IMG/VR virus record: IMGVR_UViG_3300049205_000038
Coordinates: 1-55,936 of that record
Origin: a virus
Taxonomy: Duplodnaviria > Caudoviricetes
Direction: 5' to 3' (one strand)
DNA length: 55,936 bases
Shown: piece after piece, positions 1-42,779 of the stretch
Numbering within the stretch: the first letter of the stretch is position 1
Layout of the letters: each line of letters starts with the position of its first letter
Notes under the pieces: model-generated
Seen by the model: only the letters and a program-made list of their open reading frames with translations
Told to the model about the DNA's origin: nothing
The model's database searches: none
Made by a program: the position numbers and the translations under genes

Positions 1-102
1 AGTGGCCGGTGGAAGAAGGCCTACCACGCTCGCAACGCCCACTGCTGGTGGATCGTAGTCCGCAAGGGGCGGTGCGAACCTAGGCCTGGACGCGCCACGT
101 GA
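1..102 (+). CDS. 3' end of a truncated hypothetical ORF
   Basis: Frame 1 is open from base 1 to TGA at 100-102 and overlaps the next GTG start (GTGA coupling), so the genome probably continues upstream. Confidence 0.4.
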   Translation, partial: SGRWKKAYHARNAHCWWIVVRKGRCEPRPGRAT

Positions 103-239
103 CCCCACCCCTCACCAAGGGCGAAGACCTCGTCGAGCGGCTTACGAAGAAGCGGCTTGTCGAGAGCTACGGCGAGAACCCACGCTTCGTTGAGGCGCGC
201 ACGCCTCCAGAGGAGACGCACCATGGGATGGTTGGGTGA
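99..239 (+). CDS. small hypothetical protein (46 aa)
   Basis: Hand-translated MTPPLTKGEDLVERLTKKRLVESYGENPRF...; GTGA overlap with the upstream ORF; below the ORF-track length cut-off. Confidence 0.45.
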   Translation: MTPPLTKGEDLVERLTKKRLVESYGENPRFVEARTPPEETHHGMVG

Positions 240-306
240 CACGCCGCTGACCGGCTTCATCATCGGCCTGATCGTCGGGATCGTGCTGATGGCGATGCTG
301 GGCTGA
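223..306 (+). CDS. small single-TM membrane peptide (27 aa)
   Basis: AGGAG RBS then MGWLGDTPLTGFIIGLIVGIVLMAMLG*; followed directly by a hairpin. Confidence 0.55.
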   Translation: MGWLGDTPLTGFIIGLIVGIVLMAMLG

Positions 307-313
307 GCCCATG

Positions 314-350
314 AAAAACCCCGCCGGGCGGCAGAGAACACCCGGCGGGG
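314..350. terminator. intrinsic terminator-like hairpin, possibly bidirectional
   Basis: Stem CCCCGCCGGG/CCCGGCGGGG with A5 on the left side (a U-tract on the - strand). Confidence 0.65.
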
Positions 351-455
351 CCATCGCGCGCCCCTCGTGGAGGGGTAGGGGGGCTGAGAGGTGCGTCGCG
401 CGACACCCCGACACCACCACGCCGCCGCGCCCCTGTCAAGCGAAGTGTCAAGCCC

Positions 456-485
456 TTTACATCTCCCAGTAAACTGTGCTATAAT
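456..485 (+). promoter_or_regulatory. sigma70-type early promoter P1
   Basis: TTTACA-18 bp-TATAAT (GCTATAAT) in an AT-rich intergenic gap. Confidence 0.75.
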
Positions 486-539
486 ACTAATACAGTCGGA
501 GTTACGCCGACGCAGCCCGTCGTGATTACTGGCAACTAC

Positions 540-559
540 CCAGTTTACCCGGCGGTAAA
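540..559 (+). repeat. 20-bp repeat copy 1 (CCAGTTTACCCGGCGGTAAA), hairpin-forming
   Basis: Identical to 2741-2760; internal inverted repeat TTTACC-CGGC-GGTAAA just upstream of an RBS. Confidence 0.9.
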
Positions 560-574
560 CCCTGGAGAGGTAAA

Positions 575-784
575 GTGTTCGATCAGCAGTCGTTTGAGAA
601 AAAAGCCAAGGAGCTTTTCGACAACCACCATCGCTACCCCACCCAGCACAGTCATGACGCCTACGTGGCGCACACCACCGAAGGTTACATGGTGGGGTTT
701 ATTATTCACGAAGCCTATGTGACATCGCTCAGCTGGGCGCGGCGTCGCCTGCAGAACAAGCCAGTGTTTGCGAGGGTGTCATGA
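575..784 (+). CDS. hypothetical early protein
   Basis: GGAGAGG RBS; ATGA overlap with the next gene. Confidence 0.7.
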   Translation: MFDQQSFEKKAKELFDNHHRYPTQHSHDAYVAHTTEGYMVGFIIHEAYVTSLSWARRRLQNKPVFARVS

Positions 785-1050
785 GCACCCATAACTCCGA
801 ACCCCCCGGCAAATACATCTGCAACATCTGCGGCGGGGCCGATATCCAACGCGACGCTGTGGTGAGCTGGGATATCACCACCCAGGCGTGGGAAGTCGAG
901 TCTGTCTACGATGCAGGCTACTGCGATACTTGCGAGGAGGAGATGAAATTCTTCAAATGGGTGGAGCTGAACCTCAGAGACCACGTGGCGGCGGTGGTCG
1001 AGGCCCGTGCGGCTACGCTGTGCCCGGTGATCCCCGAGGAGGGCGCGTGA
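781..1050 (+). CDS. zinc-ribbon hypothetical protein
   Basis: CNIC...CDTC cysteine pairs; coupled to both neighbours. Confidence 0.75.
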   Translation: MSTHNSEPPGKYICNICGGADIQRDAVVSWDITTQAWEVESVYDAGYCDTCEEEMKFFKWVELNLRDHVAAVVEARAATLCPVIPEEGA

Positions 1051-1382
1051 TGCCCTACGTGGTTAAAAGTGACTGGTTCCACCAGCCCGGCAGCTTGGCC
1101 CAAGTGCTGAACACCGTGCCGCCGGGCTACAACGACCCGTTCGAGCTCACCCACATCTACCTGGAAGACGCGCGAACGGCGCTGATCGACCACTACGACG
1201 CCACGCTGTCCGTCGTGTCCTACTTCATCCAGCCCCCGCCGCTGACCCTGGCGGTGGTCAAGGCGCAGATGCAGCAGGCGCTGCCCGGCGATCGGTTCAC
1301 CGTCCGCGGCAAAAAAGCCGGCACCAAGGGGGAGCCTGATGGTCTGTTCGTGCAGATGTGGATCGACGTCAAAAATCCGTAA
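1050..1382 (+). CDS. hypothetical protein
   Basis: Start re-called to ATG 1050 (TGATG overlap, GAGG RBS): MPYVVKSDWF... Confidence 0.7.
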   Translation: MPYVVKSDWFHQPGSLAQVLNTVPPGYNDPFELTHIYLEDARTALIDHYDATLSVVSYFIQPPPLTLAVVKAQMQQALPGDRFTVRGKKAGTKGEPDGLFVQMWIDVKNP

Positions 1383-1412
1383 CAACCCCCAACCCTCAAG
1401 AAAGGTAAGACT

Positions 1413-1946
1413 ATGTTCAGGCAACATTTCAACAGAGAAGTTCTCGACGGCGACTACATCGAGTGCATCGTCAAGCGCGGGATCAATAGATTTCGCGTGA
1501 GGGCCTGGGTCGAGCGAGACAACGACACAGGGCCCTACGAGGATAACTTCGACTGGCGCACCCTGCGCCGCAGCCACTACAAGACCGACGCCACGTTTTA
1601 CAAGCAGGTGGCGCAGAACGCCCTCGCCGAGCAAGCGTTCAAGGACGACGAGTGGTTTTACTGTGGGGTAATCCTCACGGTGTCGCTGGTCGACGAGGAG
1701 TTGGACAGCGGCCCCTACCACATGGTCGGCGGCCACGGCGACGAGCTGGTGCTGGTCTCGCGCTACGAAGTCGCCCTGTGGGGGATCGAAGCCAACTACC
1801 CGGTGTTCGACAAGCGCCGCCGGTCGAACACCCGCCTGCGCGACTTGGCCAACGAGCAGCTGGGGCAGGCGCTGGAGACCGCCGAGAAGGCCCTGGTGGC
1901 CTACGTGACCGACAAGGTGACGATGGCCTATGGGAGGGCTGCCTGA
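1413..1946 (+). CDS. hypothetical protein
   Basis: AAAGG RBS, 177 aa, phage-like codon usage. Confidence 0.8.
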   Translation: MFRQHFNREVLDGDYIECIVKRGINRFRVRAWVERDNDTGPYEDNFDWRTLRRSHYKTDATFYKQVAQNALAEQAFKDDEWFYCGVILTVSLVDEELDSGPYHMVGGHGDELVLVSRYEVALWGIEANYPVFDKRRRSNTRLRDLANEQLGQALETAEKALVAYVTDKVTMAYGRAA

Positions 1947-2371
1947 TGGCCTGGAGCCCCTACGGTCCGATGGGATCACGCCTGCCCCGCGAGCGCCAGC
2001 CGCACGAGGTGCGGGTCAGCAACGCTGAGATCCCGAACGTGGTGCGCAACCACATCGCCTTCACCAACAAGGTTGGGTCCTGCTATGGCGGCTGGGAGCC
2101 CAACGATCGGCTCTATGTGGTCTGGAGCTATGGCCCGCACTTCCCGGCCCTGGTGTACGAAAAGCGGTTGAACGAGTGGTTCATCAATGACGCCGACGCG
2201 GTCAGCCGAACGACCAATCAGCAGATGCGCGGGTTCCGCTACCAATTCCCCCAGGCGGAGCCGCGTAGCACGGACTGGCTTCAACAGCTGATCCAGAGCG
2301 GCGGCGTGAAAAACTGGGTCGCTTGCAAGCTGCTGCGCGCCACCGGACATGACTGGAGGCATGTCGCATGA
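1946..2371 (+). CDS. conserved phage hypothetical protein
   Basis: Start re-called to ATG 1946 (TGATG). The YVVWSYGPHFP...W..N....SRTT pattern is typical of small phage early proteins. Confidence 0.7.
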   Translation: MAWSPYGPMGSRLPRERQPHEVRVSNAEIPNVVRNHIAFTNKVGSCYGGWEPNDRLYVVWSYGPHFPALVYEKRLNEWFINDADAVSRTTNQQMRGFRYQFPQAEPRSTDWLQQLIQSGGVKNWVACKLLRATGHDWRHVA

Positions 2372-2649
2372 GCTACGTGATCCAGTTCACGGTCGGCATG
2401 CTCGAACCCGTCAACGACGAGTGGGTCACGGCTCGCAATCATGGCGTACTGGGGCATCTCGACGAGGCTCGCCGGCATTTGTGGCGGGAGGTGCGCGACA
2501 CCATGCAGGCGCACAAGTCGTTCAACGCCACGCCCGCCCCGCAGCTCACTCGGGAGATCCTTCAGGCGCTCTGCCTGAGCGCAGTCCCTGGCGCGGTGGT
2601 CACCGTTCACGGTATCGAGCATCGGCTCGTCGAGCTCAACACACCCTAG
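2368..2649 (+). CDS. hypothetical protein
   Basis: GGAGG RBS, ATGA overlap. Confidence 0.7.
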   Translation: MSYVIQFTVGMLEPVNDEWVTARNHGVLGHLDEARRHLWREVRDTMQAHKSFNATPAPQLTREILQALCLSAVPGAVVTVHGIEHRLVELNTP

Positions 2650-2660
2650 CGCGCTAGGGC

Positions 2661-2690
2661 TTGACAACAGTCCTGGAATTAGCGTATACT
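2661..2690 (+). promoter_or_regulatory. sigma70-type early promoter P2
   Basis: TTGACA-18 bp-TATACT. Confidence 0.8.
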
Positions 2691-2740
2691 AGTTGACAGT
2701 TGGGGATCGGCCCCGACGACCCAGCCGCCCTGGCCAGGAG

Positions 2741-2760
2741 CCAGTTTACCCGGCGGTAAA
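2741..2760 (+). repeat. 20-bp repeat copy 2 (CCAGTTTACCCGGCGGTAAA)
   Basis: Identical to 540-559, and again between a promoter and the first RBS. Confidence 0.9.
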
Positions 2761-2780
2761 TCCCTGAAAGGAACTATCCC

Positions 2781-3776
2781 ATGCGAGCTTCCGTGCTCAA
2801 GGCCACGCTCTCGTCGCTGATCGCCCTGCGCCGCCCGGTCCTGATCGAGGGATCGCCCGGCCTGGGCAAGACCCGCATCCCGCAGGATCTGGCCAAGGAC
2901 ATGGGCCTGGAGTTCATCCAGTTTCACGCCCCCACCCTGCAGCCCGAAGACATTGCGCTGCCGGCGACCAACGCCGACCGGACCAAGATTGACTTCCTGG
3001 TCAACGGCCGCTTCCCCGTGGAGGGGAGCGAGCACGCCGACGAGGGCTTGATCGTGATCGACGAGCTGCCCCAGGGCGACAACTCGATCCAGAAGACCAT
3101 GGCCAACCTGATCCAGGAGCGGGAGATCCACGGCCGCAGGCTGAAGCCCGGCTGGGCGGTGGTGGCCACGGGCAACAAGCAGTCCGACCGGGCCGGCGCG
3201 AACCGCATCCTGTCGCACCTGTCCAACCGCGTCACCCGCCTGGAGCTGGAGCCGCACCTGGACGACTGGTGCAACTGGGCGCTCTCGAACGACGTGCGGC
3301 CCGAGGTGGTGGCGTTCCTGCGCTTCAAGTCGGAGCTGCTGATGTCGTTCGACCCGAACGCCGACAGCAATCCGACGCCGCGCGCCTGGACCGAGGGTGT
3401 CTCGCCGGTGCTCGACAAGGTGCCGGGCGACGCCGAGTTCGACTGCATCAAGGGCGCGGTCGGCGAGGGCGCGGCGGCCGAGTTCGTCGGCTTCATGAAG
3501 ATCGCCCGGTCGCTGCCCAACCCGGACGTGATCCTGCTGCATCCCGACACCCATGAGGTGCCGCATGAGCCGAACGTGCTCTACGCCCTAAGTGGGGCGC
3601 TGGCGCACCGGGCCAGCGAGAACAGCATCGAGCGGGTGGTCACCTACGCCAAGCGGATGCCGCCTGAGTTCATGGTGCTGGTGATGCGCGACGCCGTCCA
3701 CAAGTGCCCGGCGATCACCAGCACCCGGGCGTTCATGGACTGGGCGGTGAAGGAAGGCTCGAAGGTCCTGCTCTAA
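2781..3776 (+). CDS. MoxR-like AAA+ ATPase
   Basis: Walker A GSPGLGKT, Walker B IVIDEL, sensor-1 ATGN, Arg finger LSNR, PTPRAW motif. Confidence 0.9.
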   Translation: MRASVLKATLSSLIALRRPVLIEGSPGLGKTRIPQDLAKDMGLEFIQFHAPTLQPEDIALPATNADRTKIDFLVNGRFPVEGSEHADEGLIVIDELPQGDNSIQKTMANLIQEREIHGRRLKPGWAVVATGNKQSDRAGANRILSHLSNRVTRLELEPHLDDWCNWALSNDVRPEVVAFLRFKSELLMSFDPNADSNPTPRAWTEGVSPVLDKVPGDAEFDCIKGAVGEGAAAEFVGFMKIARSLPNPDVILLHPDTHEVPHEPNVLYALSGALAHRASENSIERVVTYAKRMPPEFMVLVMRDAVHKCPAITSTRAFMDWAVKEGSKVLL

Positions 3777-3786
3777 CACACCCGCG

Positions 3787-3810
3787 CCCCGGACTTCGGT
3801 CCGGGGTTTA
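3787..3810 (+). terminator. intrinsic terminator-like hairpin
   Basis: CCCCGGAC-TTCG-GTCCGGGG followed by TTT, right after the ATPase stop. Confidence 0.7.
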
Positions 3811-3825
3811 CCCTGGAGTAAACTC

Positions 3826-4275
3826 ATGGAAGACACGGTCTTCCTCGAAGACCTACCCGAGGTAAGGGTGGTGATGATCATCTATCGACTGGCGCTGGGC
3901 CGGGACCCTAAGTTCCTGGTCCGCACACTGCACCAGACCAACGACGCCAAACATTTCGACAACTTGCTACAGGCATGGCGTCGCAAGCTTATCGACCCCG
4001 AGTGGCTGGCCAATACTCAGGGTAAATTCCAAGAGGCCATCGACGCACGTCAATCCCCCAGGTCCCGAGGCTTCGCCGAAGCCCGCAACATGGTTCACCA
4101 CGACAGCGTGGGAGCCGACGCAAGGAAAGGTCTACCCCATGAAAACCCTCAACGAGCGCGCCCTGCTGGTGTCTCTGAACATCTCCCAGTGGACGGCCAG
4201 AAAGTTCGACAAGCGCGCCACCGAAGGCGTGGTGTCTCGCGCCGGCTGCGTCGACAACGCCGCCCGGGTAAATAA
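3826..4275 (+). CDS. hypothetical protein
   Basis: GGAG RBS before the ATG; the last 137 nt overlap the next gene, so the C-terminus is doubtful. Confidence 0.5.
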   Translation: MEDTVFLEDLPEVRVVMIIYRLALGRDPKFLVRTLHQTNDAKHFDNLLQAWRRKLIDPEWLANTQGKFQEAIDARQSPRSRGFAEARNMVHHDSVGADARKGLPHENPQRARPAGVSEHLPVDGQKVRQARHRRRGVSRRLRRQRRPGK

Positions 4276-5002
4276 GAACCTGCTGCCCGATCAAGCGGCG
4301 CTGGACACGGTGATCAAGAAGTCCGGTGAGATCCGCGGCTGGTTCCTCGCCCGCACCCTGCCGTGGGCGCAGGAGGGCCAGCGCCTCCTCAAGTCCGACC
4401 AGTACATCCCGTTCACCGGCGACATGCGCGCCATGAAGTCGGACTGGTGGCGCTGCGTGGACGCCTTCGTCGAGGCGTACCCCGAGCTGCGGGCCCGGGC
4501 GGCGCACAGCCTGGGCAATCTGTTCAACCGCGACGACTACCCGGACCAGTACGATCTGAAGTCGAAGTTCAACATCGACGTGGTCTGCATGCCGGTCCCC
4601 GACGTGAGCGACTGGCGCATCGACGTGGGCGACGAGGAGCGCCGGCGTCTGGAGGAGGATCTGCAGGCGCGCATGGACAAGGCGGCCAAGGACGCCATGA
4701 GTTCGGCGTGGCAGCGGGTCTACGATGTGGTCGCCAGGGCGCACGAGCGGCTCGCTGACGCCAAGAACATCTTCCGGGACAGCTTGGTGGAGAACGCGGT
4801 CGAGCTCTGCGCCATCCTGCCGGGCCTGAACATCACCAACGACCCGGCGCTGGAGGCCATGCGCCGGGAGATCGAGGGCTCGCTGTGCCGGTACAATCCC
4901 GACACCCTGCGCAGCGACCCGCTGGTGCGCGAGGAGACGGCCGACAAGATGTCCGAACTGATGGCCAAGATGTCGGGGCTGTACGGTGTTGCAGCGGCGT
5001 AG
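4139..5002 (+). CDS. DUF3150-like protein (usual partner of phage AAA/vWA pairs)
   Basis: LLVSLNISQWTARKFD...NKNLL...RTLPW...YP pattern, helical composition, position between the AAA ATPase and vWA genes. Confidence 0.7.
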   Translation: MKTLNERALLVSLNISQWTARKFDKRATEGVVSRAGCVDNAARVNKNLLPDQAALDTVIKKSGEIRGWFLARTLPWAQEGQRLLKSDQYIPFTGDMRAMKSDWWRCVDAFVEAYPELRARAAHSLGNLFNRDDYPDQYDLKSKFNIDVVCMPVPDVSDWRIDVGDEERRRLEEDLQARMDKAAKDAMSSAWQRVYDVVARAHERLADAKNIFRDSLVENAVELCAILPGLNITNDPALEAMRREIEGSLCRYNPDTLRSDPLVREETADKMSELMAKMSGLYGVAAA

Positions 5003-5243
5003 CTGGACCTACGTGCCGGTGGCGCAGCGCCAACCCTGGCTGGTGGCGCTGCGCCTACTCGGTCACGACATGATGCGGTCGCCGCTCAAGCGAGGCGGCG
5101 AAGGCGCTGTGCTGTGGTGGGATGGGCTCATGGAGCCCGGCACCGACCACCCAGGGCATGCGGCGAGGTGCCGCCGCTGCAAGATGTTCTGCGTCTGGCC
5201 GCGCATCCCCAACCCCTGCGCAGGAGAGAGGAAACGTAAGTGA
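4986..5243 (+). CDS. hypothetical Cys-containing protein
   Basis: RCRRCK...PC; GTAA overlap with the next gene. Confidence 0.55.
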   Translation: MLQRRSWTYVPVAQRQPWLVALRLLGHDMMRSPLKRGGEGAVLWWDGLMEPGTDHPGHAARCRRCKMFCVWPRIPNPCAGERKRK

Positions 5244-5485
5244 AAACAGTCCGGCACGACGACGCCCGCTGGGTGGTCTATGGTTGGAAGCGAACCAGCT
5301 ACGGCCGCCAAGCGGTGCATAAAGAGGGCCTGACCAGTGAGCGCGCGGCCACCGCCTGGGCGCTCAAGCATGTGCTCACCGGCGGTGGCCAATCGGTGAT
5401 CGTCAAGCTCGACCACGGGGTGGACGCCAATGGCCAGCGCCACGTGGTCGCACGCTACGGAGAAGGAAAGGCGTGGTGGGAATGA
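5240..5485 (+). CDS. hypothetical protein
   Basis: GAGG RBS, GTG start, coupled. Confidence 0.65.
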   Translation: MKTVRHDDARWVVYGWKRTSYGRQAVHKEGLTSERAATAWALKHVLTGGGQSVIVKLDHGVDANGQRHVVARYGEGKAWWE

Positions 5486-5709
5486 CCTTCGACGACATGA
5501 GCGCCACCGAGACATACCCCATGCCCGACGAGGTGGCGGGCCTGCTCGCCACCTTCAGGCTGATGGTCAACGGCTGGCCGGCGCACCTCCTGCCGTCGTG
5601 CTTCACGCACTGGCCAAGGTCCTGGGATAGTGTCGCCGTATGGCGGGAGCGCCAGAGCATCCTGCTGCGCCAGATCAAGGGAGGGCCATACCCTTATCCT
5701 AGGGATTGA
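5482..5709 (+). CDS. hypothetical protein
   Basis: Start re-called to ATG 5482 (ATGA overlap). Confidence 0.6.
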   Translation: MTFDDMSATETYPMPDEVAGLLATFRLMVNGWPAHLLPSCFTHWPRSWDSVAVWRERQSILLRQIKGGPYPYPRD

Positions 5710-5734
5710 CCCCCTGCTAACGTAACCGTAAACT
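5706..5734 (+). promoter_or_regulatory. sigma70-type promoter
   Basis: TTGACC-17 bp-TAAACT, with GCTAAC in the spacer. Confidence 0.65.
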
Positions 5735-5764
5735 ACCTAACGCTAACTCTTGAAAGGTACGACC

Positions 5765-6919
5765 ATGACCCAACAACGCAAGAGCCAGAAAGCCCACGAG
5801 CTGATGGGCCGCGCGAAGGCGGCGCTGATCCTCGAACAGCCGTTCTTCGCCAGCCTGATCTGCTCGATGCCGCTGATCGAAGACACCAACGGCGACATAC
5901 TGCAGATCCCGACCATGGGCACCGACGGCAAGACCGTCTGGTACAATCCCGAGTTCACCGAGAAGCTGTCGCCCGACGAGGTGAAGTTCGTGCTCTGCCA
6001 TGAGGTGATGCACAGCGTCTACGCTCACATGTATCGGCGCGGCAGCCGCGACCCGCGTCGCTGGAACATGGCCGGCGACTATGTCATCAACGACATGCTG
6101 GCCGCCGAGAAGATTGGCCGGATGCCGGAAGGCGGGTTGATGAACTCGCAGCTGGTGGTGGCCGGCAACGGCACCACCGAGGGCGTCTACGACCTGCTGC
6201 CAGAGAACGCTGGCGGCGATGGCGTAGGCGGCGACAAGCAGTGGGACACCTGCATGGACGCTGGCGGGTCGGAGGCCGATCGGTCTGCGGGTGAGGCTGA
6301 GATGAAGGTCAAGGTGGCGCAGGCGGCGCAGGCGGCGAAGATGTGCGGCAACCTGAGCCAGCGCCTAGAGCAGTTCGTCGGCGACGTGCTGAAGCCGAAG
6401 ATCGACTGGCGCGATGTGCTGCGCCGGTTTATCGACCAGCGCGCCAAGGTCGAGTACACCTTCGCCCGGCCGAAGCGCCGGTGGGTGAGCGAGGATCTGT
6501 TCCTGCCCTCGCTAGGCGGCAGCAGCCTGGGCGAGGTGCTGATCGCCGTCGACCAGTCGGGCAGCGTCGGGCCCGACGAGGTGGCCGAGTTCAAGGCCGA
6601 GATCCTGGCCATCCACGGCGACTGCCGGCCCTCGAAGCTCCACGTCTACTACTTCGACAGCAAGGTGGCGCACAAAGAGACCTATGACCCGGACGATACG
6701 CCGGACATCCGGCGCTACACCACCGGGGGCACGGCGTTCTCGCCGATTTTCCGGGAGGCGGATCTGGATGACCTGGAGCTGAGCTGCTGCGTGGTGCTCA
6801 CCGACCTGTGCTGCGCCGACTTCGGCCCGGCTCCGACCTATCCGGTGCTGTGGATCACCACGAGTGCGACCCACGCCCCGTGGGGGCAGGTGGTCGAGAT
6901 GAACCAGCGGCGACCATGA
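5765..6919 (+). CDS. metallopeptidase-like (DUF2201-type) plus vWA domain protein
   Basis: TMGTDG, HExxH (LCHEVMH), WNMAGDYVIN; C-terminal MIDAS elements DQSGS, GGT, LTD. Start re-called after the AAAGG RBS. Confidence 0.9.
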   Translation: MTQQRKSQKAHELMGRAKAALILEQPFFASLICSMPLIEDTNGDILQIPTMGTDGKTVWYNPEFTEKLSPDEVKFVLCHEVMHSVYAHMYRRGSRDPRRWNMAGDYVINDMLAAEKIGRMPEGGLMNSQLVVAGNGTTEGVYDLLPENAGGDGVGGDKQWDTCMDAGGSEADRSAGEAEMKVKVAQAAQAAKMCGNLSQRLEQFVGDVLKPKIDWRDVLRRFIDQRAKVEYTFARPKRRWVSEDLFLPSLGGSSLGEVLIAVDQSGSVGPDEVAEFKAEILAIHGDCRPSKLHVYYFDSKVAHKETYDPDDTPDIRRYTTGGTAFSPIFREADLDDLELSCCVVLTDLCCADFGPAPTYPVLWITTSATHAPWGQVVEMNQRRP

Positions 6920-7164
6920 GCAACCGTCCAGCGAAGATCATCAGCTTCGATACATGCGACCGTATGACATCAGTTGATGGCCGAGTGGTGCATGCCCGGG
7001 GGTTGGTGGTGGATGACTTGGGGGGTGAGTCTATTGCCTTCCGTAACGTCAACACCACTGGGCGTATCACCCAGGCGCAGGTCGTCATGCTCGCCACCAG
7101 GGCCAACATTATTCAGCTGATCGGATACCTGTCCGACGTGCTGCTCAACATCGAAAGGACCTAA
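6916..7164 (+). CDS. hypothetical protein
   Basis: Start re-called to ATG 6916 (ATGA overlap). Confidence 0.6.
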   Translation: MSNRPAKIISFDTCDRMTSVDGRVVHARGLVVDDLGGESIAFRNVNTTGRITQAQVVMLATRANIIQLIGYLSDVLLNIERT

Positions 7165-7168
7165 GACC

Positions 7169-7690
7169 ATGGGCTGCGACATTCACATCGTTGTGGAGAT
7201 GAAGCATCCAGACACGCCGGGCAAGTGGATCGGGATCCATGCCTGCCCTACAGGTTACGCCGAGCGTTCACCCAGCGACAACTCTATAGGGTATACATGG
7301 TGGCAACTTCGAAACCGTAACTATCTGCTGTTCGGTGCGCTGACCAACGGCGCTGTTCGCGAAGCTGCGGACCCGGAGTTTCCCTATACAGAGCTTCGCG
7401 GATACCCCGACGACTGCTCAGATCTAAGTAGGTACCGCAGTGGTATCGACCATAGCCCCTCATGGCTGAAGCTGAGCGAGGCGATCCCGATTTTCGCCAA
7501 GTATCAATTCAATATGGTGGCGCGAAAAGTCCGCGGCATGAATACGTCGTGGTTTGAAAAGTACCCCATAGCCGACGCCGCGAATTGGTTTGGCTTGGAT
7601 CTCGAAGACCCGGTGGTGAGCGACCCGGCAGACATATCCTGGGAGTACAACGTCGACAACTATAGGATCGTGTTCGGGTTCGATAGTTAG
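7169..7690 (+). CDS. conserved phage hypothetical protein
   Basis: MGCDIH...RNY.LFG.L...RGYPDD...HS.SWL...RIVFGFD pattern; lower GC than neighbours. Confidence 0.8.
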   Translation: MGCDIHIVVEMKHPDTPGKWIGIHACPTGYAERSPSDNSIGYTWWQLRNRNYLLFGALTNGAVREAADPEFPYTELRGYPDDCSDLSRYRSGIDHSPSWLKLSEAIPIFAKYQFNMVARKVRGMNTSWFEKYPIADAANWFGLDLEDPVVSDPADISWEYNVDNYRIVFGFDS

Positions 7691-7764
7691 TGCACCCGGC
7701 CACGAAGGCGCTGATATACGCGCTGATTGGACCACGTCTTAACCGTTTAGAAAAGGGACCTACC

Positions 7765-8247
7765 ATGGCCACGCGTTCTACGTTCGTTGTTCAGATGGAA
7801 GACGGCACCTTCCACCGCAACTACTGCCATAGCGATGGATACCTGGAGCACAACGGAATGATGCTTCACACCCACTACAACAGCGCCGAGCGCGCTCGCG
7901 CCCTGGCGGCGATGGGCGACTGCTCGTTCCTGGACCGGCGGCTCGCGCCCGACCCCGGCGAGCGCCACGGTTTCGAGTATGGCGGCCGGGCTGTAGAGTG
8001 CTCGGTCTTCTATGGTCGGGACCGCTCCGACAGTGAAAGCACTGGCGACCGCTACGCCACCCTGGCCGAGGCGCTCCAGCATCGCGAGGAGTATGCCTAC
8101 GTCTGGAAGGACGGCCAGTGGTGGGTGGATTGCGATGGCGACGAGGATGATGGCGACGGCCGTCAGCTGCCGCCCGATCAGCTCGCGCCGCTGGCGCAGG
8201 CGTTGGTGACCGCCAAGCTGCTGGCGGCGAGAGCGGGAGCCGCCTGA
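7765..8247 (+). CDS. conserved phage hypothetical protein
   Basis: MATRS...YCHSDGY...G..L..HY...EYAYVW pattern; start re-called after the AAGGG RBS. Confidence 0.8.
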   Translation: MATRSTFVVQMEDGTFHRNYCHSDGYLEHNGMMLHTHYNSAERARALAAMGDCSFLDRRLAPDPGERHGFEYGGRAVECSVFYGRDRSDSESTGDRYATLAEALQHREEYAYVWKDGQWWVDCDGDEDDGDGRQLPPDQLAPLAQALVTAKLLAARAGAA

Positions 8248-8882
8248 TGCCCGACCTGCGCACCGAGCTGGAAAAGTACCTCACCCAGCATGCGAACACC
8301 ATGCCGCCGGACCACCAGTTGAGCTCCTACGCGGCGGTGGTGAAGATCCTCAGCGCCTTCCCCGACGGGCTGACAGCGCCGGAGATCGACGCCCTGAAAC
8401 CCCCGCAGCACACGACGCTCGGGCCCCGGCTGACGGATATGGTGCGGCGTGGCGTGATAGCCCGGGTTCGAACTAAGCCGACGACCCGATCGGCGTTCAA
8501 GGCGGACGGCCGGCGCAATACTCCGAACAACGTGGCGTACCGCTACCAGCTGGCTGACCTGAACCAGCTGCCGGAGACGTGGCTCAAGCCCTTCGTCGCC
8601 ATGCCGCGGGGCGTGCCGAAGACACCCAGCGGCAAGCCGAAACACCACCAGCCGCCAGACCCCTGGCCAGATCAACCCCCCGTGGAGAGCGCCGTGATCC
8701 CTAACCTTGTGGAGCAACCACACTTGACGACGCCGTCCAACCCACCCGCCACTCCTCCCGCTCGCACCATGGTGCAGCCCGGCGACCCGCGGCTGGTGGT
8801 CAACACCGGCGAGCGGACCTACAGTTTCTCACTGGTCCAGGCCAAGGCGCTTTACGAGCAGCTGCGCTTGGTTTTTGGCTGA
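8247..8882 (+). CDS. putative winged-helix DNA-binding protein
   Basis: GLTAPEI...TLGPRLTDMVRRGVI resembles a wHTH; Pro-rich linker. Confidence 0.65.
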   Translation: MPDLRTELEKYLTQHANTMPPDHQLSSYAAVVKILSAFPDGLTAPEIDALKPPQHTTLGPRLTDMVRRGVIARVRTKPTTRSAFKADGRRNTPNNVAYRYQLADLNQLPETWLKPFVAMPRGVPKTPSGKPKHHQPPDPWPDQPPVESAVIPNLVEQPHLTTPSNPPATPPARTMVQPGDPRLVVNTGERTYSFSLVQAKALYEQLRLVFG

Positions 8883-8899
8883 GAAAGTGTAAAGTGCTT

Positions 8900-9068
8900 T
8901 CCATGTCCCTGGCAACGCGCTGGGCATGGCCGTAAGTGGTGAGAGCGGCATATCCGCCACAGTCGGAACGGGGGTCTTACCTTTCCTCCCGGGTCCGTCC
9001 GCCGGCGACGGCGTTAAACCATCGGAGCGGGCCGCGGTTGCGTGCGCGGCCCGCTCCAGTCTATTTTC
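8900..9068 (+). ncRNA. candidate structured small RNA
   Basis: About 200-nt gap with an upstream TTGGTT-16-TAAAGT promoter-like site, several stems and a terminal perfect 13-bp hairpin. Confidence 0.35.
9024..9068 (+). terminator. strong hairpin, probable terminator
   Basis: GGAGCGGGCCGCG/CGCGGCCCGCTCC 13-bp stem, then AGTCTATTTT. Confidence 0.6.
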
Positions 9069-9083
9069 AGTGGAGCTTAGGTC

Positions 9084-9464
9084 TTGGTGACTATCGACAC
9101 GATGCCGCCGCGCATCGCCCAGGTCGTGCGCGACATCAGCGCACAGTTCAACGTCTCGGTGGAGGCGTTGCTCGGCGATCGCCGGATGAAGAACCTCAGT
9201 CTCGCGCGCCACCACATGTGGTGGCGTATCCGCGGGATGACCACGGCTAACGGTGAGCAGTATTCACTCGCCAAGATCGGGCTTATTTTCGGCGTTAACC
9301 ACACCTCGGTGCTGCATGGGGTGAACCGTATCCAGGCGCTGCTGGATGACGCGGCCACAAAGCAGCGGGACTACGAAGCACAGCGGGCGCGGATGCGGGT
9401 GGCGGTGTTCAACAGCGGCGTGGTCGAGGAAGAACCCTTGGCCTCCGATTACGAGGTGGTGTGA
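9084..9464 (+). CDS. stand-alone DnaA C-terminal (domain IV) HTH protein
   Basis: FNVSVEALLGDRR...LARHHMWW...SLAKIGLIFGVNHTSVLHGV matches the Bac_DnaA_C signature. Confidence 0.85.
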   Translation: MVTIDTMPPRIAQVVRDISAQFNVSVEALLGDRRMKNLSLARHHMWWRIRGMTTANGEQYSLAKIGLIFGVNHTSVLHGVNRIQALLDDAATKQRDYEAQRARMRVAVFNSGVVEEEPLASDYEVV

Positions 9465-9733
9465 TGGGTCCAGTGTCGGGACAGCGTAGCGCCATACCAA
9501 CCTTGCTGGGAGGGCCCGGCCTACCGTCGCTGCACCAGCCGGAGCCTGCGCCCAGCATGGTGCACATCTCGATCGAGGTGGCGGTCAACGGGCATCTGAT
9601 CCGCATCACCGACGCCCCGCACAAGGGCCAGCTTGCGACCGCCTATGTCGTGGGCCCGAATGACAACCTGATCGACGTGCTGGCCACCGCCCTGGTGGCC
9701 TTGAAGCTACAGCCGAGGGCGTCTTCCGAGTGA
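9461..9733 (+). CDS. hypothetical protein
   Basis: GTGA overlaps on both sides. Confidence 0.6.
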   Translation: MMGPVSGQRSAIPTLLGGPGLPSLHQPEPAPSMVHISIEVAVNGHLIRITDAPHKGQLATAYVVGPNDNLIDVLATALVALKLQPRASSE

Positions 9734-11652
9734 GCATGATCGACCAATCCAAGCTGCAGTCGTTCGACGTAGAGAGCTGGGGCTCCGGCGATCTCTATGC
9801 GCTGCAGCCGTTCAGGGCCAGGACCGGCGAGGCATGGCTGACCAGCTGCGCCATGGCATGGTTCGAGCAGGACAATGTGCTGGTGCGCACCCACCGTCAG
9901 CCGACCCAGCGGTTGCTGGAGGAGTGGCTGCGCTGGGCGGCCGAGACGAAGACCTACGTCGTCTGCTGGAACGGCCCCTTCGACGTGGCGTGGCTGATCG
10001 CCCTGGGCTTCCGCGAGCTGGTCTACCAGATCAACTGGCTCGACGGCATCCTGCTGCAGCGCCATGTGCTGAACGCGCCCAAGTACCGGCCGATGGGCAA
10101 GCTGTCGATGGGCCTGAAGCAGACCGTCGAGCGGGAGTATCCGAACGAGGCAGGCTACGGCGACAACGCCAACTTCAACCCGCAGACCGAGGAGGAGTGG
10201 GACGCCCTGGTCTTCTACAACGGGCTCGACGCCAAGCACACGCTGACCCTGGCCTGGAAATACCTCAACCTGCTGTCGCCGCAGCAGGTGCGCAACATGC
10301 TGATCGAGGCGCGGTCGATCCCGATGGTGGCGGAGGCTACGGTCGAGGGGATCCCGGTCAATGTGCCGGCGGCGCAGAAGCTGGACGTGGAGCTGGAGCG
10401 CACCGCCGCGGCCAAGTTCGTGGAGCTCAAGCTGCGCGCCAACGTCGAGATCACCGAGGCCCTGCTGCGCTCGCCCAAGCAGCTGCGCGCGCTGCTGTTC
10501 GACCACTGGGGTCTGCTGCCGGTGAAGTGGACCGACCACGCCACCGACCCGCAGCCGTCCACCGACCGGGAGAGCCTGCTGCAGCTGGCCGTGCAGGACA
10601 ACCGGGCGGCGCTGGTCAACGAGTACCGCGAGGCCAACAACAACCGCACCAAGTTCGTGACCGGGGTGCTCGCCAGCTGCGCCTACAACGGCGACGGCAA
10701 GACCCGGCCGGCGGCCAGGATCTTCGGCACCTACACTGGCCGGATGACCTACAGCTCGAAGACCGGGCGCGGGGTGGCCGAGGTGCCGAGCGGCTCACCG
10801 CTGCACCAGTGGAAGCGCGACCCGGCGTTCCGCGACGAGCTGGCCGCGCCGGAGGGCTGGACCCTGCTGGAGTTCGACTTCGCCGGGCAGGAGTTCCGCT
10901 GGATGGCGGTGGAGAGCGGCGACCCGACGATGCTGGGGCTGTGCGGCGACGGTGAAGATGCTCACAGCTATATGGGCGCGCAGTGCACGTCCATGGACTA
11001 CCGCACCCTGCAGCGCATGGTCGAGCAGGGCGACCCCGAGGGCAAGCCGAAGCGCCAGCTGGGCAAGGTCGGGAACCTCAGCCTGCAGTACCGCACATCC
11101 CCTAAGACGCTGGTGCGTGTGGCCGCCGTCCAGCACAAGGTGAAGCTGGAGTTCCTGGAGGCCGAGCACATCTGGAGAACCTACCGCCGCAGCTACAGGC
11201 GGGTGCCGGACTACTGGCGCAGGCAGATATCCCTGGCCAAGCAGCTAGGCTATGTGAAGACGATCGCCGGCCGGCGCGTGCAGCTCGGGTTCCCGGACAG
11301 CTGGGTGTACCGCGACCACGAAGACAACCCCGACGGCGACGCCACATGGGCGCACGAGAGCACGGCCATCAACTTCCCGATCCAGGGGGTCGGGGCCGAC
11401 CAGAAGTACCTCGCCATGCTGGTGTTGCGGGACTACCTGCCGAAGGTCGACGGCCGCTTCGCGTTCGAGCTGCACGACGGGCTGTTCGTATGGGTGCCCG
11501 ACGCGCGCGCCGATCGCGCCGTCGCCGAGATCCGCCACCTGCTCAGCAACCTGCCCTACGAGAAAGCCTGGGGGGTGAAGCTGCCGGTTAAATTCCCTGT
11601 CGACGCCAAGCGCGGCCCGACTTGGGGACAACTCAAAGAGTTGAAAGCCTGA
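9730..11652 (+). CDS. polA: family A DNA polymerase with 3'-5' exonuclease
   Basis: Exo I FDVE, Exo II WNGPFD, Exo III YNGLD; TGRM; motif A DFAGQEFR; motif B RQLGKVGNLSLQY; NFPIQG; motif C LHDG. Confidence 0.95.
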   Translation: MSMIDQSKLQSFDVESWGSGDLYALQPFRARTGEAWLTSCAMAWFEQDNVLVRTHRQPTQRLLEEWLRWAAETKTYVVCWNGPFDVAWLIALGFRELVYQINWLDGILLQRHVLNAPKYRPMGKLSMGLKQTVEREYPNEAGYGDNANFNPQTEEEWDALVFYNGLDAKHTLTLAWKYLNLLSPQQVRNMLIEARSIPMVAEATVEGIPVNVPAAQKLDVELERTAAAKFVELKLRANVEITEALLRSPKQLRALLFDHWGLLPVKWTDHATDPQPSTDRESLLQLAVQDNRAALVNEYREANNNRTKFVTGVLASCAYNGDGKTRPAARIFGTYTGRMTYSSKTGRGVAEVPSGSPLHQWKRDPAFRDELAAPEGWTLLEFDFAGQEFRWMAVESGDPTMLGLCGDGEDAHSYMGAQCTSMDYRTLQRMVEQGDPEGKPKRQLGKVGNLSLQYRTSPKTLVRVAAVQHKVKLEFLEAEHIWRTYRRSYRRVPDYWRRQISLAKQLGYVKTIAGRRVQLGFPDSWVYRDHEDNPDGDATWAHESTAINFPIQGVGADQKYLAMLVLRDYLPKVDGRFAFELHDGLFVWVPDARADRAVAEIRHLLSNLPYEKAWGVKLPVKFPVDAKRGPTWGQLKELKA

Positions 11653-11690
11653 GTGTACATGCTAACCGTTAGGAATGATTGGAGATCCGT

Positions 11691-12164
11691 TTGACTGTCA
11701 TCGCATGGGACGGCGAAACCCTGGCCGCCGATCGGCAAGCTACGAGCGGGGGTTTCAAGTCGCTGAGTTTCCCGAAGATCCACCGGCTGGACGATGGATC
11801 CCTGGTCGCGCCCTGCGGCGCGTCGCCGATGGGTGTGGCGATGATCGCTTGGGCGCGCGCCGGGTTTCCGCCGGACAAGTTCCCCAACGCCGGCCGCAGC
11901 GACACTCAGAACATGTGCTGGCTGGCGGTGATCAAGCCGGACGGTCAGGTCTGGGAGTATCAGGATCTGCCGGTGCCCTTCATGCGCCCTGGCACGAAGA
12001 TGGCGTGGGGCTCGGGGCGCGAAGCTGCGATGGGCGCGATGCTGGCGGGGGCCGATGCGCGGGAGGCGGTGTTGATCGCCAGCGAGATCGACGACGGCTG
12101 CGGCTTCGGCGTCCAGGTCGAGCCGCTGAGGTTCTCCCGTGAACCCTGTGGCGAAGGCGGCTGA
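11691..12164 (+). CDS. HslV/proteasome-type Ntn-hydrolase peptidase
   Basis: A TTG start at 11691 after GGAG gives (M)TVIAWDG..LAADRQ...KI...WGSG...A.GAM, with an N-terminal Thr nucleophile. Confidence 0.75.
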   Translation: MTVIAWDGETLAADRQATSGGFKSLSFPKIHRLDDGSLVAPCGASPMGVAMIAWARAGFPPDKFPNAGRSDTQNMCWLAVIKPDGQVWEYQDLPVPFMRPGTKMAWGSGREAAMGAMLAGADAREAVLIASEIDDGCGFGVQVEPLRFSREPCGEGG

Positions 12165-14937: not shown

Positions 14938-14950
14938 TAAAGCGTAATCT
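14923..14950 (+). promoter_or_regulatory. sigma70-type promoter
   Basis: TTGACA-16 bp-TAATCT, with GTTAGC in the spacer. Confidence 0.65.
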
Positions 14951-14978
14951 ACTTAACACTTAACCGAAGGGACTATCC

Positions 14979-15644
14979 ATGACTTCGAAGCTTAAGGCCA
15001 CGCCGAAAACCCGCATGGTCATCGACGATCGCGACGCCATCCGACGGGCGCTGCTGATCCATAAATTCCAGGCCAAGTACGACGTGCTGCGGGCCCGCGA
15101 GAACCTCGCGGCGATCGCCGCCTGGGGTCAGGTCCACACCCCGCACAAGGCCACCATGGACAAGCTGCCCAAGACGGCTTTCAGGGTGGATACCACGGTG
15201 TCCGTCAACGCCGGCGGCTATAGCGCGACGCTGCGGTACGGCGGCGGCCACCGCGGCGGATGGTATTTCGCAGGCAAGCGCAAATTCGGCGCGCCGATCG
15301 AGCTGGAGAGCCCCGCTGAGGGTGTGAGGCTGATCGAGTTCTACGATTTCGGTGCGGTCAATCTCAAGGATCAGATGCTGATCGACGAGGTCCAGGACAT
15401 CTTGACCAAGCAGAACGAGCTCGACGAACAGGTGCAGGACCTGGACACCCGCGTGCAGGCGACGCTGGCCAAGTTCACCACGTTCGAGGCGCTGGAGGAG
15501 GCGTGGCCGGAGATCGAGACGTTCGTCCAGGCGCGGATGAAAGAGCGCGGGATCTATGTCAAGCCGCAGCTCCCGGCCGTGCTGCTGATCGACCTGACCA
15601 AGGATCTGGAGCTGCCGCCCGAGGAAATTAGTCAAGCCGCCTAG
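14979..15644 (+). CDS. Nmad5-like (nucleotide-modification-associated domain 5) protein
   Basis: N-terminal RM...RDAI and C-terminal V.ATL..FTTFEALEEAWPE...LPA signature. Confidence 0.65.
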   Translation: MTSKLKATPKTRMVIDDRDAIRRALLIHKFQAKYDVLRARENLAAIAAWGQVHTPHKATMDKLPKTAFRVDTTVSVNAGGYSATLRYGGGHRGGWYFAGKRKFGAPIELESPAEGVRLIEFYDFGAVNLKDQMLIDEVQDILTKQNELDEQVQDLDTRVQATLAKFTTFEALEEAWPEIETFVQARMKERGIYVKPQLPAVLLIDLTKDLELPPEEISQAA

Positions 15645-17245: not shown

Positions 17246-17275
17246 TTGACAACCGGCTAACACATAGCGTAAACC
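17246..17275 (+). promoter_or_regulatory. sigma70-type promoter
   Basis: TTGACA-18 bp-TAAACC, with GCTAAC in the spacer. Confidence 0.55.
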
Positions 17276-17722: not shown

Positions 17723-18805
17723 ATGACCGACCTGACCGTAACCAACAGCGCACTCCCCGCGCACCTGCAGACCCTGTTCGGCGGGGCCGAGGTGAACGAC
17801 GATATGACCGCCGGCGTGTCCGGGGGTTATCCGATCATCTCCTACCGCGGCAAGGTGTGGGCCATCAGCCGCGGCGGTGAGCGCACCATCATCGTCAACG
17901 AGGAGGGCGACCCGCGCGCCTCGATCGAGGTGGTGCTGATCAAGGCCAACCCGAACGTCTCGAAGATATACTACCCGGCCGGCTATGAGGAAGGCTCGAA
18001 CGACAAGCCGACCTGCTACTCGAACGACGGGATCACGCCGGGCCTGGACGCCGAGGAGCGGCAGGCCGAGAAGTGCGCCGTCTGCCCGCACAACCAGTGG
18101 GGCTCGCGGATCTCCGAGACCGGGGCCAAGGGCAAGGCATGCTCCGACAGCCGACGGGTGGCCGTGGCCTCGCCGCAGGACCTGGAAGACGTGATGCTGC
18201 TGCGCATACCGGCCGCCTCCCTGCGCGAGCTGGCCGACTATGGCAAGGGCCTGTCCAAGCGGGGCGTGCCCTATCAGGCGCTGACCACCAAGGTTCGCTT
18301 CGATCCCGAGAGCGCCTACCCGAAGATGCTGTTCCAACCGTCGCGCTGGCTGACGCAGGAGGAGGCCGAAGTCGCCGCCGAGCTGCGCGACAGCACGCTG
18401 GTGGGTGACATCACCACCCTGACCATGTCCCGGGCGGCCGGCGATGTGGCGGCGGTGGCGGCGCAGCCCGAGGCGGACCCGCTGGCGGCGCTGGGCCCGC
18501 GGCCGGACTTCGTCCCGCCGACCACGGCGACGGCGGCTCCTGCGCCGGCTCCTGCCGCGACGACGACGGCGTCCACCCCGCGGCGGGGTCGGCCTCCGAA
18601 GGCGGCGGTGACCCAGGAGCAGGTGAACGCCGCGCTGGGCGGTCAGCCGGCTCCGGCCACGTCCACCGGCCTGGGGGCTACGGAAGCCCCGGCTCCGGTG
18701 CAGGCGGCTCCGGTCGCCGAGCCCGCGCCGCAGACCAACACCCTGGTCGCGGCGGCCGAGCAGTCCCTGGACGAGCTCCTGGGCAGCCTGGGCCTGGACG
18801 ATTGA
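17723..18805 (+). CDS. putative ssDNA-binding/recombination protein with Zn finger
   Basis: PTCYSNDG...CAVCPHNQWGS...GKACS..RR; Ala/Pro linker and acidic C-terminal tip (LDELLGSLGLDD). Confidence 0.7.
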   Translation: MTDLTVTNSALPAHLQTLFGGAEVNDDMTAGVSGGYPIISYRGKVWAISRGGERTIIVNEEGDPRASIEVVLIKANPNVSKIYYPAGYEEGSNDKPTCYSNDGITPGLDAEERQAEKCAVCPHNQWGSRISETGAKGKACSDSRRVAVASPQDLEDVMLLRIPAASLRELADYGKGLSKRGVPYQALTTKVRFDPESAYPKMLFQPSRWLTQEEAEVAAELRDSTLVGDITTLTMSRAAGDVAAVAAQPEADPLAALGPRPDFVPPTTATAAPAPAPAATTTASTPRRGRPPKAAVTQEQVNAALGGQPAPATSTGLGATEAPAPVQAAPVAEPAPQTNTLVAAAEQSLDELLGSLGLDD

Positions 18806-18812
18806 TCCCGCA

Positions 18813-18834
18813 GGGGGCCGGTCACCCGGCCCCC
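18813..18834 (+). terminator. hairpin after the SSB-like gene
   Basis: GGGGCCGG-TCAC-CCGGCCCC; no clear U-tract. Confidence 0.4.
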
Positions 18835-18852
18835 TCACCTTGTGAGGTTCCG

Positions 18853-19104
18853 ATGGATTTCAAGCCTGCCCACGACGCGAAGCTCGGCCCCACCGATCTC
18901 GCCCGCCTGCTCGATGTCAGCCGGGTCGCCGCCAGCGGCTGGCTTAACGGGCACACCGACCCTCACAACCTGCTAACACAGCGGGTCTCCCGGTTGCTTG
19001 ACAAGATCGGACGCGCGGTGTCGGCTGGAGAGCTCCCCGCCCCGTCCAGCGTGAGGCGCGCGGAACGGGCGATGTACATCCGAAAGGTGCTGGCCAAGTT
19101 CTGA
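18853..19104 (+). CDS. XRE/Cro-like HTH protein
   Basis: Start re-called to ATG 18853 after GAGG; LGPTDLARLLDVSRVAASGWLNG. Confidence 0.8.
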   Translation: MDFKPAHDAKLGPTDLARLLDVSRVAASGWLNGHTDPHNLLTQRVSRLLDKIGRAVSAGELPAPSSVRRAERAMYIRKVLAKF

Positions 19105-35064: not shown

Positions 35065-35423
35065 CAGCCTACGCGCTCGCCGATTTCGAGGGCGTCATCG
35101 AGACCCAGCTGCAGCTGGTCGCCGCCCTCGTCGCCCGTCGGGGGATCTTCGCCAGCGTCGCCGGTCTCCGTGGACACATCCCCGGCGGCAGCCTGTTCGC
35201 CCTTGCGCGCGCGGCGACCCTTGCGCGAACCGCCGGGTTCCCCGGACGCGTCGCGGTCGAGCGGGTTGGTGGCGGCGGCGAGCGCCCGGCCTTCGTCGGT
35301 GAATACCAGTCCGTCTGCGGTATTGCGCGCCAGGACGACGTGCTTCCCCGCGATGATGGCGATGGCGTCCCCGGCCGTAAACTCAGCTGCGTGGACTTTA
35401 ATCAGATCAGATACGGTAAGCAT
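35064..35423 (-). CDS. hypothetical virion-module protein
   Basis: AGGAG RBS, TGATG coupling. Confidence 0.7.
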   Translation of the reverse strand: MLTVSDLIKVHAAEFTAGDAIAIIAGKHVVLARNTADGLVFTDEGRALAAATNPLDRDASGEPGGSRKGRRARKGEQAAAGDVSTETGDAGEDPPTGDEGGDQLQLGLDDALEIGERVG

Positions 35424-35432
35424 GTAGCTCTC

Positions 35433-36022: not shown

Positions 36023-36034
36023 CTACGCCCCCTG

Positions 36035-36946: not shown

Positions 36947-36971
36947 GCGAAGCCTCGGGGCTCGACCTCCG

Positions 36972-37448: not shown

Positions 37449-37484
37449 TCTATCCTCTGGTCGGCAAGGGGCCTACGGACGCAC

Positions 37485-37513: not shown

Positions 37514-37514
37514 G

Positions 37515-41042: not shown

Positions 41043-41054
41043 AGTGGTCGGTCC

Positions 41055-42771: not shown

Positions 42772-42779
42772 CCTAACAC

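Follow-up and report, generated by a model that had tools for sequence, protein, structure and literature searches.

A dispersed, genome-specific palindrome before the early genes of an uncultured podophage and its relatives: a candidate operator-like site

The DNA analysed here is the complete 55,936-bp record of a phage of the class Caudoviricetes (IMG/VR record IMGVR_UViG_3300049205_000038), the whole of which is called the window below. Its early and replication genes are located on the plus strand up to about 22.1 kb, and the rest consists of minus-strand virion genes. Downstream of each of two early promoters, P1 and P2, is a leader of about 85 nt, in which three hairpins (H1, H2 and H3) and an identical 20-mer had been described. 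The original prediction took these leaders for antitermination RNAs of the put or nut kind, with a DNA operator at H3 as the alternative; its layout of promoters, hairpins and 20-mer agrees with the sequence in every coordinate. The third hairpin, H3, is not specific to the leaders. It represents an 18-bp palindrome, GTTTACC-N4-GGTAAAC, and belongs to a dispersed class of palindromes that recurs, with a different sequence in each genome, before early genes of related phages. The best-supported reading is the former alternative, namely that a dimeric DNA-binding protein of the phage uses H3 as an operator-like site, to which we give a probability of about 0.45.

The window contains three copies of the palindrome and one variant with a longer centre (Table 1), none of them beyond 3.8 kb in the 55.9-kb genome. 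Copies 1 and 2 form part of the P1 and P2 leaders and share flanking sequence on both sides (CCAG before the palindrome, CCCTG after it). Copy 3 has no preceding promoter, is located directly after a GC hairpin and carries a Shine-Dalgarno sequence, GGAG, in its centre. The variant lies upstream of the P1 start and cannot act in the P1 transcript. The pattern TTTAC-N4-8-GTAAA has four matches in the genome, all between 456 and 3822, against none in 100 shuffled sequences, while GTTTAC-N6-GTAAAC with up to two mismatches has five matches against a mean of 0.29. The exact 20-mer, CCAGTTTACCCGGCGGTAAA (540–559 and 2741–2760), occurs twice in the window and not once in 100 shuffles. It has no match in viral contigs and a single one in genome contigs, in a Bacteroidota metagenome-assembled genome, which we take as chance. 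Between the P1 and P2 leaders, only this shared 20-mer, with the palindrome, is beyond chance.

Near-identical DNA is present in soil and rhizosphere metagenome runs; the annotated phage collection contained neither near-identical DNA nor a close relative of the window. Relatives were retrieved from viral, metagenome and genome collections through homologues of the MoxR-like ATPase (2781–3776) and the DNA polymerase (9730–11652), giving 86 loci (L002–L087), with locus L001 coming from a scan with the 20-mer. Identity to the query is 27–64% for the ATPase and 36–59% for the polymerase. Palindrome families were counted in the 80 loci of at least 4 kb, some of which are redundant, and two complete relatives, G001 (57,023 bp) and G002 (63,897 bp), were searched over their whole length.

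A palindrome family of at least three copies is present in 27 of these 80 loci, and one of at least four copies in 22; shuffled sequences (five per locus) reached at most four copies, with this maximum in the window itself. The remaining 53 loci contain fewer than three copies, and many of them are either short, more distantly related or without the upstream region. Where such a family is present, each genome has its own palindrome of 15–21 bp, made up of arms of 6–10 bp around a centre of 0–6 nt and present in 3–12 copies in the non-structural module, usually 13–40 nt before a start codon. In G001 there are 12 sites, 11 of them perfect, all between 38404 and 54578, and in G002 there are 11, all between 12492 and 42188, with 14 of 14 arm positions perfect and mostly different four-nucleotide centres. 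A reversed-pattern control gave no match in either genome, and no degenerate site was found in G002 at up to two mismatches. In both complete genomes the palindromes are confined to the non-structural module.

The palindromes differ widely in sequence. Locus L035 has GGTTATCCCGGGATAACC, L037 has AATTGCC-N4-GGCAATT, L039 the same arms with N3, and L051 ATTGCA-CGG-TGCAAT. Loci L074, L047 and L066 share TTTGTGAC...GTCACAAA, with variants in L050 and L071; L023 and L013 have (A/G)TTGTTT-N3-AAACAA(T/C), L044 has GTTAAA-N3-TTTAAC and L042 ATTAAT-N4-ATTAAT. Other palindromes are found in L036, L045, L072, L076, L079 and L032. In the more distant loci L008, L009 and L018, two or three copies of a GC-rich UUCG hairpin, GGGGGGC-UUCG-GCCCCCC, replace the AT-armed palindrome. 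A further word, of the type CTACTTA(A/C), is located between palindrome and Shine-Dalgarno sequence in several genomes (for instance between genes in L035 and L071), and also occurs at 14950–14965 of the window, before the gene starting at 14979.

The position of the palindromes is much better conserved than their sequence. A Shine-Dalgarno sequence with a start codon follows within 120 nt on the coding strand at 88 of 101 sites and within 40 nt at 74 of them, at a median distance of 23 nt, and in the relatives the palindromes front genes inside operons, up to 12 per genome. The ATPase orthologue is directly preceded by a genome-specific palindrome in at least 14 relatives, so the P2 copy of the window is positionally orthologous to these sites while its sequence is particular to the genome. 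In L012, the closest relative by its ATPase (64%), a recognisably related site is kept before that gene.

The repeat, its distribution and its pattern of conservation are observed; that a protein reads it, that this protein recognises DNA and not RNA, the direction of regulation and the identity of the protein are inferred. Each leader would begin at a strong promoter of the host sigma-70 type, and the palindrome would be read as double-stranded DNA by a dimeric helix-turn-helix protein encoded by the phage. This protein would occlude P1 and would block elongation from P1, from P2 and beyond the ATPase gene, and the array of operators or roadblocks would thereby shut down or autoregulate the early operons. 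The principal argument comes from the sites themselves. Within a genome the arms are invariant and the centres free; this pattern is typical of dimer operators and the opposite of what known hairpin-binding proteins recognise in RNA, and mainly for this reason the evidence for DNA was weighed above that for RNA. Two conserved half-sites are held at a fixed spacing around the free centre in all but three genomes, in which a single site deviates by one nucleotide (one of seven sites in L074, one of six in L079 and one of two in L078). In 59 of 92 sites, and for most sites of 12 of the 19 genomes, the symmetric sequence stops no more than 2 nt short of the centre, which favours DNA because these positions cannot pair in a hairpin.

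A comparison of strands points the same way. At non-Watson-Crick positions of the cores there is no excess of G.U over A.C on the coding strand (7 against 19), a comparison in which flank composition confounds the outer positions. In L035, one site is located about 50 nt upstream of the likely first promoter (position 600) and another about 40 nt downstream of it.

Several observations weigh against an operator-like site, and most of these would fit a structure formed in RNA. In such an explanation the palindrome is a hairpin of the early polycistronic mRNAs, serving either as operator for a phage RNA-binding protein that raises or lowers translation of the next gene downstream, or as a signal for processing or stability that sets the 5' end of the mRNA of each cistron. 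The tight link to translation starts and the Shine-Dalgarno sequence in the centre of the copy at 3806 agree with translational control. Loci L037 and L039 share arms at different spacing, and together with the three one-nucleotide variants this counts against a DNA dimer site, because a hairpin tolerates a change of length more easily. The outer pair of the P2 copy stays paired as G.U. The upstream flanks show a weak excess of alternative pairing with the centres, with a mean of -3.99 kcal/mol against -3.55 in permuted flanks; 2 of 300 permutations reached the observed mean.

RNA-level processing does occur at the pre-ATPase position in some relatives. Type II hammerhead ribozymes (RF02276) are present at L004:4924-4989, L015:953-1017, L024:3072-3139 and L024:5900-5964, scoring 40.1–52.7 bits against a gathering score of 37. 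All except L024:3072-3139 are located directly upstream of the MoxR-like ATPase gene, in the slot taken in the window by P2, H1 and the palindrome. In positions 1–12000 of the window the hammerhead model has no match at E up to 10, and the leaders do not contain a hammerhead core. Two points against an operator are of another kind: degenerate sites are totally lacking, which is unusual for operators, and the reader protein is hypothetical and the transcription starts are predicted ones.

The hairpin explanation is the main rival, but is less probable than the operator. Among the 11–12 copies per genome the arms never co-vary while the loops vary freely, the symmetry enters positions that cannot pair, and G.U pairs are not in excess. 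The window variant and one L035 site are upstream of promoters, and the minimum free energy (MFE) fold of the P2 leader does not contain H3.

Two proteins of the window were considered as reader of the palindrome, both weak candidates, and neither can be called the reader. The first, gp18802-19104, comes from a family represented in 19 loci, with HTH_3 recognised in 8 of 12 members and a LacI-type headpiece in 6 of 12; its best match of solved structure is the DNA-binding domain of FruR (E 0.0011). The two loci with the AATTGCC arm, L037 and L039, have the same recognition helix in this protein, and the helix differs elsewhere, with the caveat that these two loci are also most closely related to one another. 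The family's gene has a palindrome just upstream of it in L037, L039 and L051. As a universal reader this family was rejected: it went undetected in all five additional records that carry palindromes, of which one is 90% complete, in a search that had no positive control. The second, gp9084-9464, has homologues in a few relatives only, and was rejected as universal reader on its absence from G001 and G002, which contain 12 and 11 palindromes. Both rejections also count against the operator. The window proteins scanned included no recognised repressor or integrase.

A bolder proposal, which we regard as unlikely, takes in the whole clade of uncultured soil, freshwater and marine podophages. In these phages a rapidly diversifying, genome-specific palindrome would be an address label before early and replication genes, read by a co-evolving, hypothetical phage factor, possibly a new hairpin-specific RNA-binding or processing protein that is functionally interchangeable with the hammerheads found at the equivalent place in sister phages. 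If so, the label would amount to a phage-private expression code comparable to N and nut or to repressor and stoperator, placed at each cistron of an apparently lytic phage.

Selfish or neutral repeats form a third, quite improbable explanation, in which the palindromes are a mobile palindromic cassette, or products of gene conversion or duplication of promoter-leader modules, and have no dedicated reader. The near-perfect identity of copies within a genome, with no degenerate sites, would be expected of such repeats, as would the shared flanks of the P1 and P2 copies beyond the palindrome; with fewer than three copies in 53 of 80 loci, not all relatives have the repeats. Against this, the palindromes of the two complete genomes do not leave the non-structural module, the pre-ATPase position is conserved while the sequence turns over, and the centres differ where the arms are perfect, which argues for selection on the arms and not for recent copying of whole cassettes.

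The promoters P1 and P2 each match the consensus in 11 of 12 positions. Sites resembling sigma-70 promoters number 6 in positions 1–12000, against 1.7 +/- 1.3 in shuffles, and beyond P1 and P2 no site with at least 10 of 12 matches was found in 1–32000 or 36000–55936 (the scan did not include 32001–35999). A promoter also precedes the ATPase orthologue in relatives, in the same position as P2. No phage RNA polymerase was recognised among the window proteins scanned, including the virion type that uses hairpin promoters, and the host polymerase is presumably used for this reason. The protein of 2134 amino acids belongs to the internal virion proteins and carries a transglycosylase domain. Between a small membrane-protein reading frame (223–306) and P1, a bidirectional terminator-like hairpin is found at 311–351; its match to a Burkholderia sRNA model is below threshold (24.9 bits against 49.5), and we take it as a plain terminator.

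The two terminator-like hairpins described downstream of the leaders are indeed present, at 3787–3806 and 9024–9057. The first was not called by the terminator scan, and terminator-like sites are not enriched in positions 1–12000 (7 against 7.2 +/- 2.8 in shuffles). Metatranscriptome contigs from four runs cover parts of positions 1–6000, none of them 401–600. Some bridge 3690–4051, across the 3787 hairpin and the third palindrome, and one starts at 2671, inside P2; such contigs cannot reveal starts, strands or single transcripts and may reflect DNA carry-over, and no conclusion is drawn from them.

The RNA structure of the leaders was analysed by folding, by comparison of the two copies and with covariance models. 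The folding z-scores of the leaders are between -0.9 and -2.4. Their MFE folds differ: the full P1 leader forms another, long hairpin, and in truncated leaders H3 has a favoured competitor, a helix formed by CCGUCG or GCCGCC with CGGCGG. When both leaders are folded together with RNAalifold, only H3 is recovered, with compensatory changes in 0 of 14 pairs. The layout of three hairpins can be made out in both leaders, without being robust, and selection on its structure is not supported by the two copies. The stems of H1 and H2 share sequence between the copies (GUYGG/CCGAC and CUGG/CCAG) and show no covariation; stems that are kept while loops differ are equally explained by common descent, because the stems share sequence. 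From two copies, H1 and H2 lack statistical support as conserved RNA structure. Neither leader matches Rfam at E up to 10 or at gathering thresholds. A covariance model built from both leaders scores them at 100.6 and 99.5 bits and finds no homologue beyond these two copies in 1,081,989 bases from 78 sources; the next-best match, at 12.5 bits (E 0.11), is the positionally equivalent leader of L037.

That the whole leader, H1 through H3, modifies RNA polymerase as put does or recruits an N-like protein as nut does, for read-through of the hairpins at 3787 and 9024, is very improbable: two leaders with shared sequence do directly follow the only two strong sigma-70-type promoters found, a host polymerase would have to cover at least 22 kb of plus-strand genes, and identity within a genome with divergence between genomes is also the pattern of nut hairpins and N, but no compensatory change, Rfam match or leader homologue was found, the stems are three and of only 5–7 bp, terminators are not enriched, the boxA core is unmatched inside either leader, loops vary where a loop-reading protein of the nut/N type would require conservation, and the core recurs away from promoters, with as many as 12 occurrences in an operon region of relatives, as a polymerase-modifying leader would not need.

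The first hairpin, H1, is probably a 5'-terminal mRNA hairpin at the predicted start, and its role is most likely protection of the mRNA 5' end. In both copies ACA stands before the hairpin and CAGCC after it, at a distance of 1 nt in P1 and 4 nt in P2. In a survey of the group, in which the seventh base after the -10 hexamer was taken as the transcription start, the first paired base falls at +1 to +3 in 12 of 17 long-leader promoters, and the 5'-proximal stems are often strong (z of -1.8 or lower in 10 of 17). From genome to genome the stem sequences are unrelated, in agreement with selection for a hairpin at the 5' end. The sequence ACAG at the transcript start is a promoter-proximal trait of the group and is also present at the hairpin-less promoters of L037, L039 and L051. 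Stabilising 5'-terminal stem-loops are known from bacterial mRNAs, and H1, alone among the three hairpins, resembles these in beginning 1–4 nt from the transcript start, which here is a predicted one. The stability role named in the original prediction agrees with these positions. Within the window H1 of P2 is moderate, whereas H1 of P1 is weak: it forms in a fold of 492–560, is absent from the MFE fold of the full leader and has a z-score of +0.25 in a 36-nt context. The second hairpin, H2, has no counterpart in the relatives.

Table 1. Features of the window discussed in the text
Feature	Position	Strand	Remarks
Palindrome copy 1 (H3), GTTTACC-CGGC-GGTAAAC	543..560		14 nt before GTG start at 575
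Palindrome copy 2, GTTTACC-CGGC-GGTAAAT	2744..2761		19 nt before ATPase ATG at 2781
Palindrome copy 3, GTTTAC-CCTGGA-GTAAAC	3806..3823		ends 2 nt before next ATG (3826)
Variant palindrome, TTTAC-N8-GTAAA	456..473		overlaps P1 -35 hexamer and spacer; membership uncertain (spacing differs)
P1 early promoter, TTTACA-18-TATAAT, TG-extended	456..485	+	11/12 consensus matches; start near A492 predicted from spacing
P2 early promoter of ATPase operon, TTGACA-18-TATACT	2661..2690	+	11/12 consensus matches
H1 of P1 leader, 5-bp hairpin GTCGG..CCGAC	495..511	+	3 nt after predicted start
H1 of P2 leader, 7-bp hairpin GTTGGGG..CCCCGAC	2699..2717	+	-11.8 kcal/mol; first paired nucleotide at +3 of assumed start
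H2 of P1 leader, ACTGG..CCAGT	528..544	+	overlaps H3 by 2 nt
H2 of P2 leader, CTGGC..GCCAG	2730..2744	+	from sequence and folding
GC-rich UUCG hairpin after ATPase stop codon	3787..3806	+	-24.4 kcal/mol, z -2.62; followed by only three U
Helix-turn-helix protein with DnaA C-terminal-type domain, gp9084-9464	9084..9464	+	PF08299, E 9.4e-13; weak candidate reader
Helix-turn-helix protein of 100 amino acids, gp18802-19104	18802..19104	+	weak candidate reader

Other features of the early and replication region are noted here in their own right. A second set of intergenic motifs, GCTAAC-N5/6-CGTAAAC with GTTAGC/GCTAAC words, is located before replication-module genes (5716–5733, 17256–17274, 11656–11670, about 13590 and about 22240). 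A 12-mer, CGGTTAGCATGT, is present on the minus strand at 11656–11670, with two occurrences in L035 near its first promoter (about 465 and 634); both may be middle-promoter or regulator sites. The MoxR-like AAA+ ATPase (2781–3776) occurs together with the protein of 5750–6919, in which a putative metallopeptidase domain is joined to a VWA-like domain (DUF2201_N, DUF2201), and these two, with a gene for 287 amino acids at 4139–5002, are conserved across 43–51 related loci. In the protein of 14979–15644, an Nmad5 domain (nucleotide modification associated domain 5, E 3.7e-15) is a hint that DNA bases may be modified. In the virion half, degenerate repeats in a 54-nt register are found at 38110–39650, inside the gene of a 1175-amino-acid virion protein (37515–41042, minus strand), and probably reflect a repeated protein motif in a fibre-like protein.

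Should the palindromes be operators or hairpin labels, they would mark the regulatory skeleton of a widespread group of uncultured phages that depend on the host polymerase, and would offer a simple means of delimiting early modules by sequence in metagenomic phage genomes. The turnover of sites at conserved positions would make a clean system for the co-evolution of regulators and site arrays, with relevance to exclusion between co-infecting relatives. The two leaders also illustrate that a conserved promoter-leader pair can be the by-product of a dispersed repeat and need not be a dedicated leader RNA.

When the sites are compared with known systems, the lambda-type nut site has a linear boxA upstream of a hairpin, whose conserved loop is read by the N protein. 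In the window, the 8-nt boxA core with up to one mismatch has 18 matches against 13.8 expected, none of them inside the leaders, and the nearest (452–459) is upstream of the start; the centres of the palindrome are CGGC and CCTGGA, and those of the relatives are free. With the type II hammerheads of L004, L015 and L024 the palindrome shares its location, after the upstream gene or promoter and before the ribosome-binding site of the ATPase gene.

The put RNAs of phage HK022 are about 70 nt long and consist of two long, irregular stem-loops with bulges and a short triplex, and act in cis on RNA polymerase, alone and without a protein factor (PMC9378689). The leaders of the window are similar in being two related elements with shared sequence, downstream of two early promoters used by the host polymerase. 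They differ in having three short stems without covariation and a core that recurs away from promoters.

No prior description of these phage palindromes was found in the literature, in a search whose scope did not extend to the supplementary files of the mycobacteriophage papers. The extended start-associated sequences (ESAS) of Cluster K mycobacteriophages are imperfect repeats with 17-bp arms, spacers of 4–13 bp and a separate, asymmetric 13-bp start-associated motif; their consensus is subcluster-specific, their position is conserved relative to gene families and their function is unknown (PMC3203893). Like these, our sites are inverted repeats with variable spacers, just upstream of some starts and in the non-structural half only. 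Unlike these, they have perfect arms of 6–10 bp and centres of 0–6 nt, and the hosts and phage types are unrelated. A conserved start motif of the ESAS type does not follow the palindromes of the relatives; CCCTG and a stretch rich in purines are common to P1 and P2 only. The stoperators of Cluster A are many genome-specific, asymmetric sites in transcribed regions, oriented with transcription, where the monomeric immunity repressor of a temperate phage binds and also stops elongating polymerase, and site and repressor co-evolve between phages (PMC9283540, PMC6550527). Many genome-specific sites in transcribed regions are found here as well (3–4 in the window, 12 in G001 and 11 in G002), but the present sites are palindromic, number only 3–4 in the window and are not accompanied by a recognised repressor or integrase among the proteins scanned. 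By analogy, the closest described counterparts are the ESAS of Cluster K and, also close, the stoperators of Cluster A, next to which the present sites stand as short, perfect palindromes of an apparently lytic podophage group of Gram-negative type.

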